Part shown: piece by piece, positions 4,834-20,845 of the stretch
How the letters are laid out: the number at the start of each line of letters is the position of its first letter
Position numbering within the stretch: position 1 is the first letter of the stretch
From: Planctopirus limnophila DSM 3776
Lineage (GTDB): Bacteria; Planctomycetota; Planctomycetia; Planctomycetales; Planctomycetaceae
Direction: 5' to 3'
Assembly: GCF_000092105.1 (NCBI RefSeq)
Contig: NC_014148.1
Span: forward strand, 150,001-182,000
Length of the DNA stretch: 32,000 nucleotides
Translations under genes and position numbers: made by a program
Notes under the pieces: model-generated
Told to the model about the DNA's origin: nothing
Databases searched by the model: none
The model's input: the letters and a program-made list of their open reading frames with translations, nothing else

Positions 4834-5712
4834 TCACAAGTCATTGATACGAGAATTCCGGCCCTCGCGTGGGATTTGCGATGGCTCTGCGTCGTCTTCT
4901 TCATAGCCAGGGTCTGTTTCGTGTTCTCTGTCAGCAGACTGCCGCTCGAATTCCCGGATGAGCAATGTCTGTTCGGCTGGTGAGAGCAGCGGGAGTTGAC
5001 CAGATTCGACGGGCTTGAGTGCCTGGGCGAGTTTCCAGCAAAATTGTGCCAGAACAAACACAATTACGTATTGCGCGACCCAGAATCCCCAGATCACAGT
5101 GGGAACCGCTGCTGGAGGAATCATTTGTGGAAAAAACCGGACAGCCAGCATCGCAATCACGAGGATATTGATGATCTTGGCCATTTTCGCGTAGGCCTCC
5201 AACAGTGATTGATCCATTCGGTAGACAGCCACTTTCTGCAGGGCGGCTGTCACGCCCAGCCAGAGCAACATGGCCAGAACCTGCACGACCAGCCACCGTT
5301 GGCCGGGATCTGGCATGAGCATCAGGATCACACTCAATAGAGGTAACAGGATCGAGGCAAAACGACCGGCCATCTCGAGTTGACTGAGCCGTTCGCGCGT
5401 CAGTTGCCACGTGACCCAGGCGAGTGGAATGGTGAGCGCAAACAGCACCCAGTTGCAGGCCAATCCCTGAGCACGCAACCGTCGAAATTCCTCCATCACT
5501 TTTTCCAGACGATCATTGAGCGCCTTCAGCTCAGGAAGATTTTTCGCCTCACTGGCCACTTTCCATTCTCGTTCAATATCGACGATCACTACCGCCAATT
5601 GACGAGCTTCTCTCTGCAGGTACTGCGAGAAATCGAGTCCCACTAGAAGTGCCAGAAACAGCAGGGGCAACAGCAGGATCGAGATTCGCCAGTATTTCCA
5701 ATAAGGCTGCAT
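4834..5712 (-). CDS. hypothetical polytopic membrane protein
   Basis: 292-aa ORF. It has an N-terminal TM (ISILLLPLLFLALLVGL), a charged helical segment, then about five further hydrophobic helices and an acidic C-terminal tail. I recognise no family. Confidence 0.55.
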   Translation of the reverse strand: MQPYWKYWRISILLLPLLFLALLVGLDFSQYLQREARQLAVVIVDIEREWKVASEAKNLPELKALNDRLEKVMEEFRRLRAQGLACNWVLFALTIPLAWVTWQLTRERLSQLEMAGRFASILLPLLSVILMLMPDPGQRWLVVQVLAMLLWLGVTAALQKVAVYRMDQSLLEAYAKMAKIINILVIAMLAVRFFPQMIPPAAVPTVIWGFWVAQYVIVFVLAQFCWKLAQALKPVESGQLPLLSPAEQTLLIREFERQSADREHETDPGYEEDDAEPSQIPREGRNSRINDL

Positions 5713-5867
5713 ACGAGGTGGCCTTCAGTGCGGCAAGCAATAGAACATGTGAGTTTGTGAGATGACTCTCGAAAGAGATCCATCCGAAAGGATCCCATAA
5801 CTCACGGCAAAACTCCACCACCTGACAAGCCTTGATAGCGGCGTAGGTCTTGAGATTGGCGATGTGC

Positions 5868-5909
5868 ATAAAACAAAACAGGCAATCCGATCATGGCCGG
5901 ATTGCCTGT
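5868..5909 (-). terminator. intrinsic terminator (minus strand, possibly bidirectional)
   Basis: 12-bp perfect stem ACAGGCAATCCG / CGGATTGCCTGT (5878-5889 / 5898-5909) with an 8-nt loop. On the minus strand it is followed by TTTGTTTTAT. On the plus strand it is followed by a weaker T-rich tract (TGTATGTTTGGTT). Confidence 0.55.
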
Positions 5910-6412
5910 TGTATGTTTGGTTCGACGTGGCTTTAAGAGCTGGGGACAGGAGAGCTTTAATCAGCAGGCCTATCCAGGACGACTCGTCATGTTGGAGAGT
6001 TGTGTGTCCTCTCGAGCCGGAAGTCTTTCGCGAGAGGAGCCCCTGAGGAGAGCCGTAGCTCTCCCCAGGTTTGGCCTCACGTTCCCGGATCCGCCGGGCT
6101 TCAAGCTGGATTCATTCTAACCAGGCTTTTGGACGACAACAGACTCTGAAGTGAGTGTCTGTTTCCATCTCGATCAGCAACCAAATCTTTCGTTGCCCCT
6201 GACATCGCTTAGACCTGATTCCATCAATTGCCTGGCATGTGCATTTGATGGAGTTGTCTCGTACTCAGTTAACAACAGCCAGAGTCGGCTATGTCGATTT
6301 TTGATCGGGTGTGACCAGTATGTTCGACTTATCATGTGATCAGGCGGAAACCAGTTGCGGCTGAAATCCGCCCAATCGACACGTTTTGTTTCACGAACCA
6401 GTCGTTTTCAAC

Positions 6413-7003
6413 TTAGTGGCAAGGTGTGGCCATAGGAGCGGCACATGTTGGAGCACAAGCGGCTGGAGCAGCACATGTGGGAGCACAGGCAGCTGGAGCA
6501 GCGCAGCTTGGGGCCACTGAGCAGCAAGAGGTCTTGCGGCTGCAGGCCTTACGGAGCTTGCACTTCATGGCAGCAAACTTTTCCTTGAGGTGGCAGCGCT
6601 TCTTGGCGCAAGGATCGCAAGCTGGAGCACATGTTGGTGCACAGGTGGCTGGAGCACAGGCAACAGGAGCAGCACAGCTAGGAGCACAAGCGGCAGGAGC
6701 TGGTGCACAGGCAGCAGGAGCTGCACATGTAGGAGCACAAGCGGCTGGAGCTGGAGCACAAGCAACAGGAGCAGCGCAAGTAGGAGCACAGGCTGCAGGA
6801 GCAGGTGCACAGGCAACAGGAGCAGCGCAGCTCGGGGCACAAGCCGCAGGAGCGGCACACGATGGGGCACATGCAGCAGGTGCAGCGCAGGTAGGCTCAG
6901 GAGCGCAACCGCAGTCGCTCTTCTTGAGCCAGTGGAAACCGGCGTCAGCCGAGTTCAAACCGGCGATACACAGCAGCACAGCGGAAATCCATGCAAACTT
7001 CAT
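6413..7003 (-). CDS. secreted hyper-cysteine Cys/Ala/Pro repeat protein (CAAPxACAPx repeats)
   Basis: ATG at 7003 is preceded by AGGAGA with about 7 nt spacing. Sec-type signal [21 protein letters not shown]. The mature part, about 175 aa, is almost entirely C/A/P repeats: [10 protein letters not shown] and [17 protein letters not shown] units. A basic non-repeat linker ([30 protein letters not shown]) interrupts the repeats. The ORF track extends to 7117, but the upstream extension lacks signal or SD support. Confidence 0.7.
6416..6900. repeat. degenerate coding tandem repeats (30-nt and 51-nt periods)
   Basis: For example, the 30-nt units 6441-6470 and 6471-6500 differ at 3 positions. The central array (about 6625-6900) repeats with 30/51-nt periods and encodes the CAAPxACAPx units. 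Copies diverge mostly at positions that keep the peptide motif. Confidence 0.8.
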
Positions 7004-7476
7004 CTCAATCTCTCCTAAACAAATCCAAGGGAACGTGAGGAACCAGGAGCGAAACAGGACACCTTGTCCCGCCATCTGAACCCCTGGCCCAACCCTGCGT
7101 GTCACAACGGACATCACACCCTACTTTTCGGACTGAAGAGACCTGGAGGTCTACGAAGTTTGCCCAAAATCTGCATGACTCACACTGCTGGCGAGAATGT
7201 GAAGAATGCACCGAATTTGCGGGCGGATTTCAGGCTGCTTTTGCATTTCACCCTTCGGGTAAGTTTTTCCACTCAAGTTGGCTCCGCCAGAACTTTTTGG
7301 CCCTTGCTCTACGATGCTCAATATTGTGGGCTGGTACTGACTCAATGAGTTCAATTGCCTGCGAATGATTGCCGTAAGTCGTATCTAATGAATCCGATAC
7401 GCATTTTGGTTCCACTCCACATCGGAAAACCAGTCAATGCCTGATACGATGCTCGTCATCAAACAGAGGCCTCACC

Positions 7477-8766
7477 ATGCACGACATCACTCACGACCAC
7501 GCCAGCCAGCATCGCATTCTTGCCTTGAGCCGCATGCTGGAACTGGTACTCAAGCTCAATGATGTCAACGACCTCGCTGCCGTCCTGAACGCGATTACCC
7601 ATGGTGCCTGCCAGGCCGTGGAATGTGATCGAGCCAGTCTTTTTCTCTACGATTCTCAAGCGGACGAACTCTACTCTCACTCGACGACCGAATTGGAAAT
7701 CCGCGAGATTCGCCTTCCCATTGATAGCGGCATCATTGGACACGTTGCCCGGGAGCGCGTGCCGCTGGTTGTCGCACAACCTCATGACGATTCGCGATGG
7801 TCACCCGTGTTTGACCAGCAGACGGGCTATCGAACTCGAAACATTCTGGCTGTGCCCGTGGTCTCCAAATCGGAGAATCGACTTCTCGGTGTTCTCCAAC
7901 TGCTCAACAAGCATGCAGACTGTTTCGAAGACTTCGATGTTCAATTGATGCAGGCCTTTGCCGTGCATGCGGGAGCCGCCATCGAAAGGCAGTGGCTGCA
8001 ATCGGCTGCCAGGCAAGCGGAGGATTACCGCCGCTCGATGGAAATGGCCCGACAGATTCAAATGGGGTTTTTGCCGAAAGAACGCCCACGCTTCCCGCAA
8101 TACGAAGTGACTGCCTGGTGGGAACCTGCCGAGTATGTGAGTGGTGACTATTACGACTGGCTCGTGGCTCCCGATGGTCGCCTGGGCATCGCTGTAGGGG
8201 ATGTCAGCGGTCATGGCATGGCTGCCAGTCTGATCATGGCGTCGGTGCGGGCCATGATTCATGCGCTGGGAAGATTGGCAACCACACCAGCCGATATGAT
8301 GGAACTTTTGCAGGATGTCGTGCAGGCCGATCTCGTCGATGGTCGATTTCTGACACTTTTACTTCTGACCATCGATCCCGTGACTCATTGCGTAGAATTT
8401 GCCAATGCGGGTCATGCACCTGCGATCTACTATCAATCGTCGAAACGCTCCTGCAGACGACTCGAAGCCACTCGCACGCCACTGGGATTTCCCGTCAATC
8501 AATCCTTGCGATTGCCCATCTATCCCGTCATGCAGCCTGGCGATCTTCTCATTCTCGGTACGGATGGACTCATTGAAGTTCATGACGAGAAAGGCAAGAT
8601 TTTTGGCATGCAACGCCTCGAAGAACTCATAGCAAAACATGCACATGAGTCCGTTGAAACGTTATCTCAGATTCTGAAACGTGAAGTTTTCGATTTCTCC
8701 ACAGAACATCCCTTTCCAGACGACATGACGTTGCTCATCATTAAGCGCGTCGACGAAGCCGCCTGA
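7477..8766 (+). CDS. GAF domain-containing PP2C/SpoIIE-family protein phosphatase (RsbU-like)
   Basis: 429-aa ORF. N-terminal GAF-like region (ITHGACQAVECDRASLFLYD ... LLGVLQLLNK). C-terminal PP2C/SpoIIE motifs GDYYDW, VGDVSGHGMAASL, LGTDGL and DDMTLLII. Confidence 0.85.
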   Translation: MHDITHDHASQHRILALSRMLELVLKLNDVNDLAAVLNAITHGACQAVECDRASLFLYDSQADELYSHSTTELEIREIRLPIDSGIIGHVARERVPLVVAQPHDDSRWSPVFDQQTGYRTRNILAVPVVSKSENRLLGVLQLLNKHADCFEDFDVQLMQAFAVHAGAAIERQWLQSAARQAEDYRRSMEMARQIQMGFLPKERPRFPQYEVTAWWEPAEYVSGDYYDWLVAPDGRLGIAVGDVSGHGMAASLIMASVRAMIHALGRLATTPADMMELLQDVVQADLVDGRFLTLLLLTIDPVTHCVEFANAGHAPAIYYQSSKRSCRRLEATRTPLGFPVNQSLRLPIYPVMQPGDLLILGTDGLIEVHDEKGKIFGMQRLEELIAKHAHESVETLSQILKREVFDFSTEHPFPDDMTLLIIKRVDEAA

Positions 8767-12256: not shown

Positions 12257-15200
12257 TCACAAGGCCCGTACGATGGATGTATAGACTTGTTGGAGTAGAT
12301 CCGCTTGAGTAAACGGCTTTTGGAGAAAGGCCTCATGAGGCTGTAATGATGCTCCGCGGGCACCGAAACTCTCTGAATATCCGCTGATATAAACCACCGG
12401 GAGATCGGCATGCATCGATCGCAATTCTCCCGCTAATTCTCGCCCACCGATTCCCGGCATGACGACATCGGTTATTAATAAGTCGATTGGATCAGGCAGC
12501 GTTCGTACCAGATCTAACGCCTCTCGACCATTCGCAGCTTCCAAGACGCGATAACCCTGTAATTCGAGCATCAGCCGCGTCGCTTTTCTCACTGCCGGTT
12601 CGTCCTCAACGAGCAGAATCGTTTCCGCCCCATGGCGGATGGTTGGTTGTTTGCTGGCTGTCACCGACGGAGGTTCCTCAGCGACACCGGGAAACAGTAA
12701 TCGAAAAGTCGTCCCGACGCCTGGCTCTGTGGTCACATGGATCTGGCCATCGTGCTGTTGCATGATGCCGTGGACGACGGCGAGCCCCAGTCCGGAACCA
12801 CTTCCGATCTCCTTCGTTGTAAAAAAGGGTTCAAAGATCCGGGCTTGGACGTCTGCGCTCATCCCGATGCCAGTGTCAGCAACTTCGAGTTGAACGTAGG
12901 GCGTCTCCAATGAAATGTTCGTTAAGAATTGTCGAGCGTCCTGTGGTGAAAGTCTGCTCGTGCGAATCGTCAGCCGGCCGCCGGCGGGCATGGCATCCCG
13001 TGCATTGACGACGAGGTTCATCAGCACCTGGTCTAGATGAGTAGTATCGGCCTTGATCGCAGGCAAGAGAGGATCGAGATGCAGGATCAATTGGATTCGT
13101 TCGCCGATCAATCGCCGCAGCAGTTTCTGCGATCCCTCGATCACATCATTCAAGTGAATGACTCTCGGCTGGAAATGCGAGCGGCGACTGAAGTCCAGCA
13201 ATTGCTTGGTCAATTGTGCGGCCCGAAGTCCTTCGTCGCGGATGTGCTGCACGGACTCCCGCCAATTCTGCGGCTGCGATTTCTGATCCAGTAGTAGCTC
13301 ACAATAGCAGTTTATGACCGTGAGGAGGTTATTGAAATCGTGGGCGATGCCTCCCGCGAACTGCCCCACGGCTTCCATTTTCTGCGACTGCCGCAACTGC
13401 TCTTCCAGCTTTCGCTGTTCCGAGACGTCGCGAAAGCTCAACACGCGTCCCACCGGTTGTCCATCCATCCATTGGGGCTGAGAAAACCGTTCGACGATGC
13501 GGCCGTCCTTGAATTCCAGCACATCGAAGGAGGATTCCTCCCGGTTCTGGTACATCTCCTGTACCCGGCGGACAAAGCCCTCCGGGTCCTTCAATTGAGC
13601 GAGCATCTTCTGAACGGCCTGATGTTGGTCGGATGATGCGATGATGTCCGACTTGTTCGCCTCGGCGATCATCTCCTCAGGAAATCTCCAGATTGAGATG
13701 AAGCGGCGATTGTAATCCAGCACGCGGCCTTCCAAGTCAACCACGAGAATGCCGTCCGCCGTCGATTCCAAGGTGGCCCGCATCCGCGACAGAGACTGCC
13801 GCATCTCCAACTCGGCCTGCTTGCGTTCCGAGATGTCACGCATGATGGCACAGTTGTATTCCTGGCCTTCATATTGCAGATAGTTGACGGTGACTTCGGT
13901 TTTCAAAGTGCGGCCGTCCTTGGTCACATGGTCGGACTCGAACGTGAATGACCCGCGGCACCGCAGTTCTTCCCAATGGGCCGGCCAGGCTTCTGGCAGA
14001 AAATTCGGATCGATGTCCGGTACTGTCTTTCCGAGCATCTCGTCGCGCGTGTAGCCCAAGGTGCGGCAGGCGGCATTGTTGACGTACAGAATCTCACTCG
14101 AAGCGTTGATCCAAAAGATGGAATCCACGGCGTGATCGACGCTGAATTGATTTAAACGCAACATCCGCTCGGCTTCCTTGCGGGCCGTGATGTCGCGAGA
14201 AATGCCGATTATTCCAATGACATTTCCAAGTTCGTCGCGATACGGAGCCTTCGACGCAAGATAGGTCCGTGTCACATAATTCGCCGTCAGCGTTTCTTCC
14301 GATGTTCTAACAAGGCCCGACCGCATGACTTCGCGATCCACTTCCAACACCAGACGGGCACCTTCGGCGTCAAACCACTCGCTATCGTCTCTTCCTAAAA
14401 CCTGCTCGAGCGGCTTGCCCATGAATTGGCAAGCCGCCTGGTTCGCGAGGAGATATTTGCCATCCCGGTCCTTGACGAAGACCGCATCCGATGTGCCTTC
14501 CGCGACCGCTCGCAGCAATTCCGCTGTTCTCCGCACCTCCGTTTCAGCCCGTTTGCGATCGGTGACATCCTGCATCGCCCCCACGACTCGGCGCGCATGT
14601 CCCGCTGCATCACGCGCAATGTACGCTCGATCATGAATTGAGGCCCAGACGCCGTCCGCGCGCAGGAACTCGTAATCGGCAGTCCAATAAGTAGCGGTCC
14701 CGTCCACCGCAGCACTCAACGACCTGGCAGTACGTTCCCGGTCTGCCGGATGGATCCTGTCGATCCACCACTGCAAGGAATCGCTGGACTCTGGCGTTCG
14801 TCCTAAGGTGGCCGCGTATTGCTCGCTCCAGGCAACGGTCCCTGCGACCGGGTCGAGATCCCAGATCAGATCATTTGTCGCGAGGATGGCCAGGCGGTAG
14901 CGTTCTTCGACTTCGAGTCGCGCCAGTTCGGCTTGTTTGCGGGCGGTGATGTCCTGAGTAACACCCACAAATTGGATGGGTCGCCCATGCTGATCAGAGG
15001 TGGCGCGGGCCCTGGAATGGAGCCAGCGTAGCTGGCCGTCGGGTCGGACAAAGCGAAACTCCGAATTGAGCGAAGTCTGCGTGGCGATCGCATTCGCCAG
15101 ATCATGACGCACGGTATCACGGTCTGCTGGGTAGACCCCGTTTAAAAAGAGCTCCTGGGAAGGTTGGTCCACTCCCGGAACATATCCCAGCAGTCGGAAG

Positions 15201-16942
15201 CCTTCATCAGACCAGGTGGCCCGATTCTGCACCAGGTCGATGATCCAGCTCCCCATGTCGCCGATCCGCATGGCCTCTTCGAGAGTCGACTCGCTCTGCT
15301 GCAGCGCAGCTTGAGTCCGCTTCAAATCATCGATATCGGTGCAGGTGCCGTACCACCTCACGATGGCTCCCGACGCATCTCGGATGGGAACCTGGCGACT
15401 GATATGCCAGCGGTAAGCTCCGTCCGTCTGGCGGATCCGGAGCTCGATGTCTCTGGGAAGTTCTTGCTCCAAAGTCGCGGTCCAACGCTCAATCGCGTTC
15501 GGCACGTCCTCCGGATGAATGACCTGCTCCCAGGACCACCCCGTCAGCTGATCCATCCCGACGCCGGTGTACTCCGTCGCCTTGGCGTTCAGGTACGTCA
15601 AGCCGCCATCCAACGCCGCGACCCAAACGATTTGCGGGATGGCATCGGCCAATTCGCGGAATCGTTGTTCGCTCTCCCGGAGCGATTGTTCGACCCGCTT
15701 GCGCTCAGTGATATCCTCGGCCGTGCCGATGATCTGGCTGACCCGACCGTCAGGCGTTCTCTCAAAAACCCGATCCCGGCTGACGAACCAACGCCAGTTG
15801 CCATGGACATCCTGCAGGCGATATTCCGCGAGCAGGACTTGTTGATCGTCGACGGTGTCCCAGCGTTGGAGAAGCGTCGTCACGTTGGCGAAATCAATCG
15901 GATGTACCAGTTCCGCCAGTTCAGCCCAACTCCGGCCTTGGATCGCTTCTGGGGTGAAACCCAGATCCCGCATGAGATAATAGTTCGAATAAGTGATACT
16001 CTGCTGCTGTAGGTCGAACACGTAAATTGTCAGGGGGGATGTCTCAGCGACGGCTTTCACGAATTTCTGGCTGGCCTGGACTTCCGCCGCGGCGAGTTTT
16101 CTGGCAGTGATGTCCTGATCCGTCCCTTCCACACGGAGAATGTTGCCGTCAGCATCGCGCGTGGCGACAGCCCGACTGTGCAGCCAGATCATTTGCCCGT
16201 CAGGACGGATGATGCGCAAATCATCTTCAAAGCGATCGGCACCCGCGAGCATCGCGTCAACCCGCGCGACAGCCGTCGGAAGGTCATCGGGATGCAGCAG
16301 TTGCAGGAACGCTTGAAAGCTGGGCTGAACGACTTGTGGATCGACACCAAACAACGCGAATACGCCGCGCGACCACCAGACTTTGCCTGACGAGGGCTCC
16401 CACACCCAACTACCGATGCGCGCGATGCGCTGCGCGTCCGCTAATTGGCGTTCGCTCTCCCGTAATGCCTGTTCCGCCCCGCTTCGCTCGAGATGGTTCG
16501 CTGCCGCGACACCAACGGTATGCGAACGATTCCCCATCGCTGCATCCGCAAAGTCCCGTGCAATCACGATCACGCCTTGTACCGTACCGTGTTGATCCTG
16601 GTACGGCTTAGTCGTCATCTGGATTGAGCGAAGATTATCTCCGATTTGGACGACATGCGTCTCCGCTGCCGGAAGACCCGATTGCATGACTCGCTGGTCC
16701 TGCGCCCGCATGATGCGCGCCGTGTCACTACCGAATACGGCGGTATCATCCTGATCGAGGATTTGCTCGCGTGTCCGATTCGTGAGCTTTGTTCCAGCGG
16801 CATTGCAAAACAAGTACCGGCCGGAGCTGTCTTTCACAAACAGTGCATCCAGCGACGCTTCGCTTACGGCGGCCAGCAAATCGAGTAGTGGCAGCGAGGG
16901 GGCTGAATTCCGAACGTCCTCGCGATCTAAGTTCGCAGTCAT
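12257..16942 (-). CDS. soluble multi-PAS hybrid sensor histidine kinase / response regulator
   Basis: About 1560 aa. About nine PAS/PAC modules, each closed by a DITxRK-type motif, with no TM segment. HisKA box GGIAHDFNNLLTVI (His codon at 13340-13342). HATPase N/G boxes NLVVNARDAM, DTGIGM and GSGSGLGLAVV. C-terminal receiver ILLVEDEPAVR ... DLLITDVVMPG (Asp codon at 12467-12469). The ORF track begins at TTG 16966; ATG 16942 (MTANLD) is preferred. Confidence 0.9.
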   Translation of the reverse strand: MTANLDREDVRNSAPSLPLLDLLAAVSEASLDALFVKDSSGRYLFCNAAGTKLTNRTREQILDQDDTAVFGSDTARIMRAQDQRVMQSGLPAAETHVVQIGDNLRSIQMTTKPYQDQHGTVQGVIVIARDFADAAMGNRSHTVGVAAANHLERSGAEQALRESERQLADAQRIARIGSWVWEPSSGKVWWSRGVFALFGVDPQVVQPSFQAFLQLLHPDDLPTAVARVDAMLAGADRFEDDLRIIRPDGQMIWLHSRAVATRDADGNILRVEGTDQDITARKLAAAEVQASQKFVKAVAETSPLTIYVFDLQQQSITYSNYYLMRDLGFTPEAIQGRSWAELAELVHPIDFANVTTLLQRWDTVDDQQVLLAEYRLQDVHGNWRWFVSRDRVFERTPDGRVSQIIGTAEDITERKRVEQSLRESEQRFRELADAIPQIVWVAALDGGLTYLNAKATEYTGVGMDQLTGWSWEQVIHPEDVPNAIERWTATLEQELPRDIELRIRQTDGAYRWHISRQVPIRDASGAIVRWYGTCTDIDDLKRTQAALQQSESTLEEAMRIGDMGSWIIDLVQNRATWSDEGFRLLGYVPGVDQPSQELFLNGVYPADRDTVRHDLANAIATQTSLNSEFRFVRPDGQLRWLHSRARATSDQHGRPIQFVGVTQDITARKQAELARLEVEERYRLAILATNDLIWDLDPVAGTVAWSEQYAATLGRTPESSDSLQWWIDRIHPADRERTARSLSAAVDGTATYWTADYEFLRADGVWASIHDRAYIARDAAGHARRVVGAMQDVTDRKRAETEVRRTAELLRAVAEGTSDAVFVKDRDGKYLLANQAACQFMGKPLEQVLGRDDSEWFDAEGARLVLEVDREVMRSGLVRTSEETLTANYVTRTYLASKAPYRDELGNVIGIIGISRDITARKEAERMLRLNQFSVDHAVDSIFWINASSEILYVNNAACRTLGYTRDEMLGKTVPDIDPNFLPEAWPAHWEELRCRGSFTFESDHVTKDGRTLKTEVTVNYLQYEGQEYNCAIMRDISERKQAELEMRQSLSRMRATLESTADGILVVDLEGRVLDYNRRFISIWRFPEEMIAEANKSDIIASSDQHQAVQKMLAQLKDPEGFVRRVQEMYQNREESSFDVLEFKDGRIVERFSQPQWMDGQPVGRVLSFRDVSEQRKLEEQLRQSQKMEAVGQFAGGIAHDFNNLLTVINCYCELLLDQKSQPQNWRESVQHIRDEGLRAAQLTKQLLDFSRRSHFQPRVIHLNDVIEGSQKLLRRLIGERIQLILHLDPLLPAIKADTTHLDQVLMNLVVNARDAMPAGGRLTIRTSRLSPQDARQFLTNISLETPYVQLEVADTGIGMSADVQARIFEPFFTTKEIGSGSGLGLAVVHGIMQQHDGQIHVTTEPGVGTTFRLLFPGVAEEPPSVTASKQPTIRHGAETILLVEDEPAVRKATRLMLELQGYRVLEAANGREALDLVRTLPDPIDLLITDVVMPGIGGRELAGELRSMHADLPVVYISGYSESFGARGASLQPHEAFLQKPFTQADLLQQVYTSIVRAL

Positions 16943-17056
16943 CAGTGGAAAAGACCTCGGTTGCAAGTACGACCTGGGCTCAAAATCCCAATGACGGGAA
17001 TCAATAACGTAGACAATGTAATCTTCACAGATGCAGAAAACACTTCAAGGTTTATC

Positions 17057-17573: not shown

Positions 17574-18923
17574 ATGCGTGTTTTTCCGTTGATTGGCTAT
17601 CTGTGGTTGGTGGTTGCCCCGGTTCTCGCGGAGGACAAAACTTCTGACCGCGTGGCGGATGTGGTGGCGGTGCCGGGGTGTGTGGCGGTTTGGGATTTTG
17701 TGAAGCGGGAACCGGGGGGTGAGCGGCGGTTTCTGGCGCATGTGCCTGCCTTCGGCAGGCCTGCGGGGGGAAAGACGGGTGGCGGGAATACGGAGAAGGT
17801 AGCGGCGGCGGGAGATGCAGTGCCGAACGAGTATCCGCTGGATGCCGGGAACTATGTGCGGGATTTCTGGGGAAGCGGGCGGGAAGCCACTTATGCGGAC
17901 TTTCCACTTTTGGGCCGGGGGCCTTTCGGCAATGCGATCCAGATTCGACAGGAGACCGATCCCGATTTTCGCCCCCTGTTGTTCGTTCCCCGCGAACGGC
18001 TGCACGATACGCCTCTCGATATCAAAGGTGCCGGAAAATCGGTGACCGTCGTTGTCTGGGCCATTCGTGAAAGTGGTAACCATGCCCTGGCCGGGATCTG
18101 GCACGAGGGAACCGACCTCAAGCAGGAAAGTACGGCTGGCATTCAGAAGGTGCAGCGTGGGCAAAGGCAGTATGCCCTTTTTGCCGGTCTCAATAAGGAA
18201 GGCTCTGCCTGTGGGCATGTTTCCGAGAATGGGGCGAGTTCGTTCCTGAATCGTTACGCCCTGCACAAGTGCAACTCGGCAGAGGTCTCGCCCAAAGTTC
18301 CGGCCAACGCTCCCCCAGAAAAGCTGGACGCCGCCTGGCAATGTTTTGCCATGACCTTCGACCACGAGAAGGATCAACTGACGGGCTGGCTCAATGGGCA
18401 TGCCGGTGATCGCTGGCTGGAGAATCCGCAGAAGGACAACCTGCTCTCTTATGCAGCCAACGCGTGGAAGCAGGGGCACTTGCGGCGTGAAGAAGGCCTT
18501 CAACCAGGCGAAGACCCGAACTTCCCCGCTGACCAGTTTTACAACCCGCCCGAAGAGACACCTGTTGCTCCCAAGGTTTTGAGTGAAAACGATGTCGAGC
18601 GAATCGAACTTCGGGAATATGGCTACACCAAAATGAAGGTCACGCTGCGTAAAGCTGGTGATGAGTGGAAACTGGCGGAACGTGAGCTGGTCGCTTTGAG
18701 ACTCAATCCGTGGTGGTATCCCCATGATCTGTACACACCGGCTAACGATGGCAGTGGTGGGCCCTTCACCATTGGCCGGGTGATCCATAGTTCAAGGAGT
18801 GTCGGCTTTACGGGCTGGATTGGCGGCGTCGCCGTCTTCGACCGGGCACTGAGTGAAGCAGAACTGAAAAAGCTGACCGAGCTGGGAAGAAAGCCAGTGA
18901 GTACAGTTCCGAGTGGGTCGTAG
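17574..18923 (+). CDS. secreted LamG (concanavalin A-like lectin/glucanase) domain protein
   Basis: Start preferred at ATG 17574, giving a signal-like N-terminus MRVFPLIGYLWLVVAPVLAEDK. The C-terminus FTGWIGGVAVFDRALSEAELKKL is the typical Laminin_G_3 ending, and an internal LTGWLNGH motif is present. The ORF track start at 17451 is probably upstream read-through. Confidence 0.7.
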   Translation: MRVFPLIGYLWLVVAPVLAEDKTSDRVADVVAVPGCVAVWDFVKREPGGERRFLAHVPAFGRPAGGKTGGGNTEKVAAAGDAVPNEYPLDAGNYVRDFWGSGREATYADFPLLGRGPFGNAIQIRQETDPDFRPLLFVPRERLHDTPLDIKGAGKSVTVVVWAIRESGNHALAGIWHEGTDLKQESTAGIQKVQRGQRQYALFAGLNKEGSACGHVSENGASSFLNRYALHKCNSAEVSPKVPANAPPEKLDAAWQCFAMTFDHEKDQLTGWLNGHAGDRWLENPQKDNLLSYAANAWKQGHLRREEGLQPGEDPNFPADQFYNPPEETPVAPKVLSENDVERIELREYGYTKMKVTLRKAGDEWKLAERELVALRLNPWWYPHDLYTPANDGSGGPFTIGRVIHSSRSVGFTGWIGGVAVFDRALSEAELKKLTELGRKPVSTVPSGS

Positions 18924-18925
18924 GG

Positions 18926-19525
18926 GTGCCGGTCATGTGGACTGCTGTTGTAGAACCGCTGAAAGGTGAAGCGGGGTTTCGCTGTTCACTTAGCAAGGCG
19001 GGTGCAGTGGGCACCTGGAGAGAGGTTGCGACGGCACTGGCCTGTGATCTCGGTTGTCGTCGATTGCTCAATCACACCTTGGCAGAAATTCCCTGCGTGG
19101 CGTTTCGTTGGGAGTGCCCGGCACTGACCCGCAACAGATTTGATCAACCTTTCGAGTGTGTGATTCTGGAAGATCGGAGCCTGCATCGAACGCCGGACAA
19201 TTCGCCCTTTGCGAGTTACTTGAAGCAGTGCCAGACACAGGTGGCTGTCTTCGACAATCTGGGAGGTGACGCAACGCTCGTTGTGCCCACAATGGCGACG
19301 GACACGAATGCCTATGGTCATCTGGCTTCGTTCGTGCGGCTGGCACCCGAAAACCAGCAGAATGAACTGTGGCAAAGGGTCGGTGAAACCCAATTGCGAA
19401 AGGTGGGGGCAGCCCCCGTCTGGTTGAATACGGCCGGTGCGGGCATCGCCTGGCTGCATGTCCGCGTCGATTCGCGTCCTAAGTATTATCATTACGGGCC
19501 ATACCGCCAGGAAAAGGTGGGTTAA
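18926..19525 (+). CDS. conserved hypothetical protein, probably co-transcribed with the LamG gene
   Basis: 199-aa ORF starting at GTG 18926 (or ATG 18935), 2 nt after the LamG stop. It looks globular, not low-complexity (VFDNLGGDATLVVPT ... WLNTAGAGIAWLHVRVDSRPKYYHYGPY). I cannot place it in a family from memory. Confidence 0.55.
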   Translation: MPVMWTAVVEPLKGEAGFRCSLSKAGAVGTWREVATALACDLGCRRLLNHTLAEIPCVAFRWECPALTRNRFDQPFECVILEDRSLHRTPDNSPFASYLKQCQTQVAVFDNLGGDATLVVPTMATDTNAYGHLASFVRLAPENQQNELWQRVGETQLRKVGAAPVWLNTAGAGIAWLHVRVDSRPKYYHYGPYRQEKVG

Positions 19526-19654
19526 CCGGGCGCCAGCATTTTCTCCGTTGAGAATTCGTCTGGAGGTGGATCGCCTTTTCGGCTATTTCTGTGCCAGTTT
19601 GATTCAGTGCGGGGCCGAAGAGAAAATCCCGGGAACTGACATGGAGGTCGGTTT

Positions 19655-20845
19655 GTGAGCCCATGGAAACATGTCCGTTTGATCCAGGCACTGGCCTTCT
19701 GGGGGCTGAGTTGCGGATTCATCCTTACCAGTGGCTGGGCCGCCTGGCAGTTTGCAAAGCCCGGCACACTCGTCGAATGGGGCTTCGTGCCCACGGGCGA
19801 GTTAATCGGTGCCGAAACTCCACCTGAGACACCCGTCCCGTACAAACCACTTCCTCAGGCTGAAGCGACGGCTCCTTTCGCGAGCTTACCCCACGTTCCC
19901 GGTGCTGCTGAGGCGACGCCTGAAGGCACTGCCCTCATGACGGCGGTCGGTGAACAAGAGCATCTGCAGCATTCGCAACTTGGTCTGGCCTCTGAGAGGA
20001 TGTCTGGGACCCAGGAGGCAATGCCGGGCAATCTCCATGAGATTCCCAGACGGTACCAGCGAAAACCTCTCAGTCGCGACCAGCTTTCCAGCTCGTTGGT
20101 GCAGCAGGTCAGTTTTCAACCGCCAGCCGAAGATCTCACGGCACAGATCTCCGACAGCCTCACAACGTCTCTGGCAGAGGTTGATGGTTTGCTGAAGGCG
20201 GGTGAGACACTCAAGGCCCACAAAAAGCTCTCACAGCTTTACTGGAGTGAACCGGCCAGCCGACCTGTTTTTCAGCAGCGCATCGAAGCCACAGCGCAGG
20301 TGATCTTTGAGCAAGCCGAGCCGCATTTTGTCCCGGCCTACACCATTCAGCCTGGTGACCAGCTTCGAAAAATTGCCGGCGAGCACAAGCTCTCGTGGGA
20401 GTACCTCGCCCGGCTCAATCGCATCGACCCCAGGCGACTGCAAGCCGGTAAGAAGCTGAAGGTCATTCGTGGCCCCTTCTCGGCTCATGTCTCGTTATCG
20501 CGATTTGAGCTTACCATTCACCTGCAGAGCTATTTCGTCAAGAAGTACAGCGTCGGCATCGGGAAGGATCGATCGTCACCACAAGGGAAACTGGCTGTTC
20601 TCGAAAAGATTGCGGATCCGCAGTACACAGATCCTGAAGGCCGGGTGATTGAAGGGAAAGACCCACGAAATCCCTTAGGCCCCCGCTGGCTTGATCTGGG
20701 CAACAGCTACGGAATTCACGGCACCATTGAGCCCGAAAGCATTGGTAAAGCCGCTTCGAGAGGCTGCATTCGCCTGCAAAACGACGACGCGATCGAAGTC
20801 TACGACTTCCTCGTCAAGGGCTCAGAAGTCGTCATCGAACCGTGA
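19655..20845 (+). CDS. LysM domain-containing L,D-transpeptidase (YkuD family)
   Basis: GTG start with GGAGG 7 nt upstream. N-terminal TM. LysM segment YTIQPGDQLRKIAGEHKLSWEYLARLNRI ... LQAGKKLKV. YkuD catalytic motif YGIHGT ... ASRGCIRL. Confidence 0.85.
   Translation: MSPWKHVRLIQALAFWGLSCGFILTSGWAAWQFAKPGTLVEWGFVPTGELIGAETPPETPVPYKPLPQAEATAPFASLPHVPGAAEATPEGTALMTAVGEQEHLQHSQLGLASERMSGTQEAMPGNLHEIPRRYQRKPLSRDQLSSSLVQQVSFQPPAEDLTAQISDSLTTSLAEVDGLLKAGETLKAHKKLSQLYWSEPASRPVFQQRIEATAQVIFEQAEPHFVPAYTIQPGDQLRKIAGEHKLSWEYLARLNRIDPRRLQAGKKLKVIRGPFSAHVSLSRFELTIHLQSYFVKKYSVGIGKDRSSPQGKLAVLEKIADPQYTDPEGRVIEGKDPRNPLGPRWLDLGNSYGIHGTIEPESIGKAASRGCIRLQNDDAIEVYDFLVKGSEVVIEP

Follow-up and report, generated by a model that had tools for sequence, protein, structure and literature searches.

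Mammalian high-sulfur keratin-associated proteins are disulfide cross-linking matrix proteins, and disulfides also cross-link the chlamydial proteins OmcA and OmcB. The two chlamydial proteins are Cys-rich and are regarded as giving the envelope structure within the outer-membrane complex (PMC2811131). In cnidarians, the Cys-rich domains (CRDs) of minicollagens, with the pattern CX3CX3CX3CX3CC, reshuffle their disulfides between molecules and so polymerise into a wall that withstands pressure (PMC4863159). Early chemistry described planctomycete envelopes as proteinaceous, and to date no proteins other than the YTV proteins have been connected with Cys-rich wall material there (PMC8567305, PMC12673574). 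The gene considered here lies on the minus strand of a 32,000-nucleotide stretch of the Planctopirus limnophila DSM 3776 genome (contig NC_014148.1, positions 150,001 to 182,000; hereafter the window, with coordinates counted from its first letter) and is in all likelihood Plim_0114. Judged by sequence comparison, its product belongs to an undescribed family of secreted Cys/Ala/Pro repeat proteins, here termed 'AGLF-CAP', whose genes are preceded by a conserved, structured mRNA leader. As a single non-essential gene the locus is ordinary; what is unusual is its chemistry, its family-wide conservation and the dedicated structured mRNA.

The N-terminus of the Plim_0114 protein consists of an n-region MK, a hydrophobic core of 14 residues (mean Kyte-Doolittle value 2.4) and then A-D-A, and on a heuristic reading it has the n-, h- and c-regions and the A-x-A of a Sec (type I) signal. 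The 175-residue mature part (16.5 kDa, pI 8.5) contains 32 Cys, 62 Ala and 30 Pro, and there is no Tyr anywhere in the protein. A previous reading of this DNA from its letters alone (the sequence-only reading) had proposed a signal peptide with an AGGAGA Shine-Dalgarno sequence, followed by a mature part of almost nothing but Cys, Ala and Pro with about 32 Cys, in two repeat arrays separated by a Lys/Arg-rich, Cys-containing linker. The open reading frame (ORF), the hydrophobic core and the A-D-A agree with this, subject to the heuristic nature of the signal call; the Cys estimate is exact, and the arrays, linker and repeat units are as it described. Its account of regular Cys spacing also holds overall, except that Cys on either side of the APA insert are spaced C-x6-C and not C-x7-C. 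In the C-terminal array the spacings run 5,5,3,5,3,7, and at the DNA level Tandem Repeats Finder reports a 51-nt period with four copies (6648-6853) and a 30-nt period with 2.3 copies (6435-6502). AlphaFold2, given the family alignment, returns a mean pLDDT (predicted local distance difference test) of 51, too poor to justify a fold search with the model, and the only helices are the signal helix and one in the linker. The latter, residues 138-153, is the sole predicted helix of the mature protein (block pLDDT about 69), with a hydrophobic moment of 0.92. No membrane or wall anchor motif was seen at either end. Some 100 residues, from ...WLKK to ...CAKK (6611-6922(-), roughly mature residues 7-110), are devoid of Lys and Arg, and trypsin-based proteomics would therefore be almost blind to this protein.

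A word-based search with Plim_0114 retrieved 33 relatives of the same architecture and an exhaustive profile search gave 218 matches at E<=1e-3, all relatives being named 'hypothetical protein' in their sources. Statistics for the family were drawn from 136 distinct mature sequences. The end of the signal peptide carries a near-invariant A-x-A|G-L-F motif, with the signal peptide conserved across about 136 relatives, and a basic central segment is present in all of them (median net charge +6). Mean composition is 19.7% Cys, 20.2% Ala and 14.4% Pro, disposed as CAAP, CCAP or CEP units. Spacings between Cys are mostly 0, 3, 5 and 6, with CxC and CxxC rare (235 of about 3500, about 7%); 69 members have an even count of Cys and 67 an odd one, the penultimate residue is Cys in 81 of the 136, and 54 of the 136 end in CC-x. 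His makes up 12.2% of the first 10 mature residues and 1.7% elsewhere, a sevenfold enrichment, with 95 of 136 members involved, and most relatives begin GLFHH with His at positions 4-5. To be counted as 'AGLF-CAP', a protein had to have a Sec signal with A-x-A at its end and G-(L/F)-(F/H) after it, a Cys content of 15% or more in units of the CAAP/CCAP type, a basic segment in the centre and Cys as its penultimate residue; Plim_0114 has ADA|GFH, 18% Cys, nine CAAP units, a Lys/Arg linker and the ending ...PCH. No Pfam model passes its threshold for Plim_0114, Keratin_B2_2 alone responding at E<=10, and NCBIfam and a sequence-profile search of the PDB gave no relative, in keeping with the sequence-only reading, which had not recognised the repeat as a described family.

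The YTV cell-wall proteins of Rhodopirellula baltica, Gemmata and Tuwongella are, like Plim_0114, secreted, Cys-rich and from the same phylum (PMC8567305, PMC12673574), and both have been proposed to explain a cystine-rich proteinaceous envelope (PMC8567305, PMC12673574). Plim_0114 nevertheless lacks the YTV motif and Tyr, gives no match to the Pfam YTV model at E<=10, and differs in repeat unit and size from the YTV proteins, which have been detected in wall preparations. With the keratin-associated proteins (Keratin_B2_2, PF13885) it has in common short repeats rich in Cys and Pro and the spacings CC and C-x3-C, but its PF13885 score of 17.3 bits (E 0.0045) falls short of the 27-bit cut-off, and no more than 4 of 18 family members match the model at all, the best with E 4e-4. 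The likeness is compositional and not one of homology, the planctomycete protein being bacterial, Ala-rich, and equipped with a Sec signal and a basic linker. To minicollagen CRDs the family is similar in its Pro-containing short Cys repeats and frequent CC ending, yet Plim_0114 alternates C-x5-C and C-x3-C with about 30 Cys in place of a six-Cys domain, has no collagen segment and shows no sequence relationship; the likeness is analogy only. The hosts of OmcA and OmcB belong to the same Planctomycetes-Verrucomicrobia-Chlamydiae (PVC) superphylum. OmcA, however, is a 9-kDa lipoprotein and Plim_0114 has no lipobox, and its repeat architecture is without counterpart in OmcA or OmcB; a Cys does occur in the h-region, in a VLLC or ALVC context, but it is missing in some relatives (AALAAFAS), unlike an OmcA-type lipobox. 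Pfam, NCBIfam, word and profile searches revealed no similarity to OmcA or OmcB and retrieved no homologue outside the family.

Composition keeps several frames open across the locus, so that an open frame alone proves nothing, and the case for the gene rests on comparison, with intact signal-peptide-plus-repeat ORFs at 33 genome and 10 metagenome loci. With one genome scanned per species, 30 loci were found in Schlesneria and other Planctomycetaceae, and in all but one of these (L016) the ORF is intact, at 136-174 aa. Among 22 close pairs the ratio of non-synonymous to synonymous difference (pN/pS) is 0.24 in the Cys/Ala/Pro frame, where third codon positions account for 712 of 1174 differences, 0.30 in the antisense frame that shares its wobble positions, and 1.5-2.1 in the remaining four frames. 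Two strains differ from the window at 5 and 6 nt of the coding sequence (CDS), in every case at third positions and with an identical protein, and two of the 17-residue units encode the same peptide with 7 of 51 nt different, all synonymously. The number of repeats varies among close species (136-156 aa). This pattern indicates purifying selection on the repeats and not recent slippage, as had been argued earlier from the 27/30 identity of units 6441-6470 and 6471-6500, a figure that proved correct on recomputation. That the minus frame is instead non-coding, a low-complexity artefact or the shadow of a real product read from 6426..7079(+), could draw on the several open frames and on the low antisense pN/pS; the latter, though, is the artefact to be expected from shared third positions, stop codons interrupt the antisense ORF in about 19 of 33 orthologues and the sense frame in none, and the ATG, the Shine-Dalgarno sequence and the canonical signal peptide are all conserved, which makes this alternative extremely unlikely. 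The assignment of the gene to the minus strand stands, and more than 40 loci of Planctomycetaceae carry an orthologue that is intact. A longer N-terminus, with the leader being coding from a GTG at 7117, was also considered and rejected, since leader lengths (127-137 nt) differ by non-multiples of 3, pointing to translation that begins at the ATG and not upstream, and since the Shine-Dalgarno sequence and ATG are invariant.

A look-up of exact sequences in a cluster table gave no match for the 196-aa product, a 234-aa product or the antisense product, and the Plim_0114 tag was for that reason assigned from neighbouring accessions and from gene length in a study that used TraDIS (sequencing of transposon insertion sites). 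On one side the flanking proteins are identical to Plim_0112 (ADG65965) and Plim_0113 (ADG65966), and on the other to a GAF-SpoIIE phosphatase (ADG65968) and L-serine dehydratase (ADG65969). The published insertion index of Plim_0114, scored 'non-essential', is 0.145763 (PMC10632474, Supplementary Data 2). This equals 86/590 and fits a gene of 591 nt, the length of the ORF; the same arithmetic applied to Plim_0113 (index 0.167401, or 38/227) yields its ORF of 228 nt. The assignment accordingly rests on accession order and index arithmetic. The 196-aa gene has been called on 5 contigs and Plim_0114 is annotated as 'hypothetical'; no expression data for it were found in the literature. With matches in 1 of 45 Planctomycetes, 1 of 79 PVC and 0 of 4655 prokaryotic genomes (PMC10632474, Supplementary Data 6), it was treated as an orphan in the TraDIS study, a status that the family found here corrects.

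The leader came to light through homologues that gene callers had extended upstream in frame, where the apparent 'peptide' is in reality a conserved nucleotide leader. More than 40 loci have kept this leader, and it was found only upstream of 'AGLF-CAP' genes. From CCGAAA to the ATG it measures 127-137 nt in nearly all clades, with one sequence cut at 116 nt, and its elements follow in the order CCGAAAAyyuAGGgCAGUGA, a P1 hairpin, a long P2/P3 hairpin, a single-stranded CUCACGUUCC, about 25 nt, AGGAG and AUG, the AGGAG at the Shine-Dalgarno position being kept across all leaders compared. P2 has 7-11 bp, P3 has 6 bp and the apical loop is A/G-A-G-G-U; in the window the loop is AAGGU and P2/P3 lies at about 7040-7090. 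The strands of P2 differ from clade to clade and yet remain complementary (GUCGAGG/CCUCGGC; GAAUUGAGG/CCUCAGUUC; GGUCC..GCCA/UGGC..GGGCC; GGACUCUCCC/GGGAGAGGCC; and, in the window, GGCCAGGGG/CUCCUGGUUC), with duplex energies mostly 1-4 standard deviations below those of shuffled sequences and a few clades without such an excess.

RNAalifold on a plain MAFFT alignment, in which the variable stems are misaligned, recovered only the central hairpin, and the structure was then tested by an alignment-free duplex test and by a covariance model built from 15 sequences. Across 38 sources and 377 kb this model, R1, finds exactly one match per locus and nothing elsewhere; its match in the window, 7001..7131(-), scores 35 bits (E 1.4e-5). 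Paired cells amount to 86.8% as against 72.0% in shuffles, none of 500 attaining the observed level, and both partners vary in 19 of 24 pairs; the score for covariation is 0.408 compared with 0.167 for shuffles and 0.04-0.11 for slid controls, keeping in mind that the alignment used was itself fitted to the covariance model. Rfam has no match at gathering thresholds over the window, and what it returns at E<=10 over 6300-7500 is noise. When metagenomes were scanned with two leader blocks, 19 matches resulted, 10 of them true leaders, each with a family ORF 27-31 nt downstream, and 9 of them chance occurrences without leader context. A shared regulon was considered and, as far as the data reach, rejected, since no locus in the 377 kb has more than its one leader and each of the 10 metagenome leaders stands before a family gene. 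A third exact CTCACGTTCC, at 18677(-), is in coding DNA without leader context and is ascribed to chance. From its predicted structure and its fixed position before one gene family, the leader is best described as a structured cis-regulatory RNA, and one that may bind a ligand or protein and switch in the manner of a riboswitch.

Downstream of the CDS lies a second conserved element, in the 3' untranslated region (UTR), in which GGGAACGUGAGG (6075-6086) is the exact complement of the leader 12-mer and is followed by a GC-rich hairpin (6042-6069) and then CUCUCGCG. An inverted repeat thus brackets the gene. Of 33 loci, 22 have the exact complement of the leader 10-mer, GGAACGUGAG, in their 3' UTR, with near-matches in several more, usually 60-70 nt after the stop codon but in the window 330 nt after it. 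The arms of the GC hairpin covary between clades. At the 11th position there is apparent co-variation, with leader C and 3' G in some clades and leader G and 3' C in others, while L025 would give a G·U pair, both by hand reading. Long-range pairing between the 5' and 3' ends of the RNA fits these observations, as does one motif used twice in inverted orientation. Recombination sites of an invertible or mobile cassette fit the complementarity too, though no copy in inverted orientation was seen among about 48 loci and there is no recombinase nearby.

Several further features of the region after the stop codon can be put on record. The 3' UTR of the window (6090-6412) is about 270 nt longer than that of relatives. 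A small hairpin soon after the stop, at about 6343-6373(-), also occurs in the 3' UTRs of L008, L026, L030, L035 and L036, and its loop is conserved: several clades share CCGCAA(C), and one other clade has CTGAAC or TTGAAC. The window also has, peculiar to itself, a perfect 13-nt inverted repeat, CTGAAATCCGCCC/GGGCGGATTTCAG (6361-6373 and 7221-7233), just after the stop and about 220 nt 5' of the ATG, which is interleaved with the conserved 12-mer pair. Plim_0113, a 75-aa ORF at 5893-6120(+), lies entirely over the 3'-UTR element and is probably a spurious gene call. The Plim_0114 transcript probably ends at the terminator-like hairpin listed with the other features in the table.

Table. Features of the Plim_0114 locus, in window coordinates
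Feature	Position	Strand	Remarks
Conserved structured 5' leader	7004..7131, probably to about 7190	-	covariance model and covariation
Leader 12-mer CCTCACGTTCCC	7029..7040	-	core 10-mer CTCACGTTCC invariant in most clades
Shine-Dalgarno sequence AGGAGA	7011..7016	-	7 nt 5' of the ATG
Cys/Ala/Pro repeat protein CDS	6413..7003	-	ATG at 7003 to TAA, 196 codons
Sec-type signal peptide	6941..7003	-	cleavage predicted after A-D-A, N-terminus GFH; heuristic reading
Repeat array 1 (residues 39-131)	6611..6889	-	CAAPxACAPx units and 17-residue units
Basic Cys-containing linker	6521..6610	-	30 residues, Lys/Arg-rich, between arrays 1 and 2
Repeat array 2 and C-terminus	6416..6520	-	ends ...PCH, penultimate Cys
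Conserved 3'-UTR element	6028..6088	-	GGGAACGUGAGG, GC-rich hairpin and CUCUCGCG
Terminator-like hairpin, bidirectional	5877..5910	.	13-14 bp, T-tails on both strands; between Plim_0112 and the 3' element

As to function, the product is tentatively seen as an extracytoplasmic disulfide cross-linker of the envelope or of a matrix, a reading to which we give somewhat less than even confidence. Translated from the minus-strand ATG and exported by Sec, the protein would after cleavage be a cationic polypeptide of about 16.5 kDa without a stable fold, with an amphipathic helix rich in Lys and Arg between its two arrays. Outside the cytoplasm, under oxidising conditions, the 32 regularly placed thiols could form short-range disulfides (C-x3-C, C-x5-C), and reshuffling of these to intermolecular bonds would let the protein act as a multivalent cross-linker, a 'cement' for a layer of the envelope or of an extracellular matrix, perhaps tethered to anionic envelope polymers by the basic linker helix. 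It would then be an accessory component, abundant and with a stabilised and tightly controlled mRNA, rather than an essential scaffold. This interpretation derives, by analogy with keratin-associated proteins and minicollagen CRDs, from the export, the absence of a predicted fold and the regular Cys with Pro-containing turns, and also from the lack of a parity constraint on Cys, the variable repeat number and the terminal CC. The near-equal occurrence of even and odd Cys numbers argues against a fixed set of disulfides that are all intramolecular, and unpaired or intermolecular Cys are possible. The disulfide cross-linking itself, the location, the abundance and the role of the linker are all conjectural deductions from these features.

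Codon usage has a bearing on the suggested abundance. GCT provides 57% of the Ala codons of Plim_0114 and 19% of those in neighbouring genes; 94% of its Pro codons are CCT or CCA, the codons GCG, CCG and CCC hardly occur, and all Lys codons are AAG. The GC content at third positions (GC3) is 0.42 versus 0.60 in neighbouring genes, and the GCT/GCC preference extends across the family, even to genomes of 60-65% GC. Together with the long structured leader this bias hints at an abundant product.

Several considerations weigh against a cross-linking role. The codon bias might stem from repeat or RNA-structure constraints and not from expression level. The gene tolerates dense transposon insertion (index 0.146, 'non-essential'; PMC10632474), and its product is for that reason not an indispensable wall backbone in laboratory growth. 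The Cys-rich proteins that have been detected in planctomycete walls are the YTV proteins, of another family (PMC8567305, PMC12673574). The gene neighbours show no link to Dsb proteins or wall synthesis, and the His-rich mature N-terminus is more easily explained by metal binding. The sequence-only reading had offered a structural cross-linker, with a metal or redox buffer as the second choice; the former would fit the composition, the lack of a predicted fold and the freedom in Cys parity.

A metallothionein-like buffer of metals or redox state outside the cytoplasm is a possible, if somewhat unlikely, alternative. Its thiols would be kept reduced or be reversibly oxidised, and would either join the His-rich N-terminus as ligands of soft metals, for example Cu(I), Zn, Cd or Ni, or scavenge oxidants and electrophiles. 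The Cys content of 18-20% and the His enrichment near the mature N-terminus speak in its favour, and the predicted N-terminus of Plim_0114, G-F-H with His at position 3, is what we take to be the amino-terminal Cu/Ni-binding (ATCUN) pattern, although His at this position is not conserved, most relatives having it one or two residues later. The indifference to Cys parity suits a metal buffer as well, as non-essentiality suits a stress-specific role, and in one locus (L005) feoAB adjoins the family gene, an adjacency that is not conserved. SmtA, MymT and Csp1 are cytoplasmic or Tat-exported helical bundles rich in CxC/CxxC, the usual metal-thiolate motifs, and known bacterial metallothioneins are cytoplasmic. 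With such metallothioneins and copper storage proteins Plim_0114 has in common a high Cys content and possible thiolate metal binding; the family, in contrast, always carries a Sec signal and has few CxC and CxxC spacings, and the P. limnophila protein is Pro-rich, predicted to be unfolded and without a match to NCBIfam or, even at E<=10, to a metallothionein or copper-storage model of Pfam.

The protein might also be a secreted adhesive or a biofilm-matrix (holdfast) component, a cationic, flexible and thiol-rich polymer outside the outer membrane that glues cells to one another or to surfaces. The family is cationic, disordered, Cys-rich and exported, no anchor motif is present at either end, and the gene is dispensable in shaken or plated laboratory culture, all of which would be expected of such a component. 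The gene, on the other hand, shows no connection with holdfast, stalk or polysaccharide loci, and a function of this kind, which differs from the favoured cross-linker in location only, is considered quite unlikely.

The neighbours of Plim_0114 in the window have no Dsb, metal or wall link to it. Upstream and divergent, at 7477-8766(+), is the GAF-SpoIIE phosphatase (RsbU-like PP2C), an arrangement seen in about 22 species-level loci (45-52% identity) which hints at control by a partner-switching stress pathway. Directly divergent from the family gene in about 31 loci, though missing next to Plim_0114, is a membrane protein of about 294 aa (in L005 at 4855-5736(-)). It belongs to no Pfam or NCBIfam family, and its 271 homologues are all 'hypothetical'. 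AlphaFold2 predicts for it, with confidence (pLDDT 89.7), a bundle of transmembrane helices and a C-terminal domain that is basic and conserved; the model's best PDB fold matches are G-protein-coupled receptors at E 0.2, a generic seven-transmembrane likeness with no specific relative. Elsewhere in the window, 12257-16966(-) encodes a 1569-aa hybrid histidine kinase with at least six PAS domains and a receiver domain, and at 18926-20845(+) a DUF6940 protein adjoins a LysM-YkuD L,D-transpeptidase.

The family adds to the planctomycetes a second, widespread group of hyper-Cys exported proteins that is unrelated to the YTV proteins, and its leader is a previously undescribed RNA with covariation support. 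The complementarity between leader and 3' UTR makes the locus a candidate for 5'-3' UTR cross-talk in a phylum with little-explored gene regulation. A more speculative proposal, and as a whole an unlikely one, joins the two themes: 'AGLF-CAP' proteins would be a bacterial disulfide 'cement' analogous to keratin-associated proteins and minicollagens, with pairing of the leader CUCACGUUCC and the 3' UTR gating complete transcripts. If so, Planctomycetaceae would possess a detergent-resistant envelope or matrix layer rich in cystine and Pro that standard trypsin proteomics would miss for want of Lys and Arg in the repeat arrays, and only complete transcripts would be stabilised or translated by virtue of the CUCACGUUCC–3'-UTR pairing. 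P. limnophila is a model organism for which genetic tools and transposon libraries have been published, so that the function of Plim_0114 is open to direct tests.

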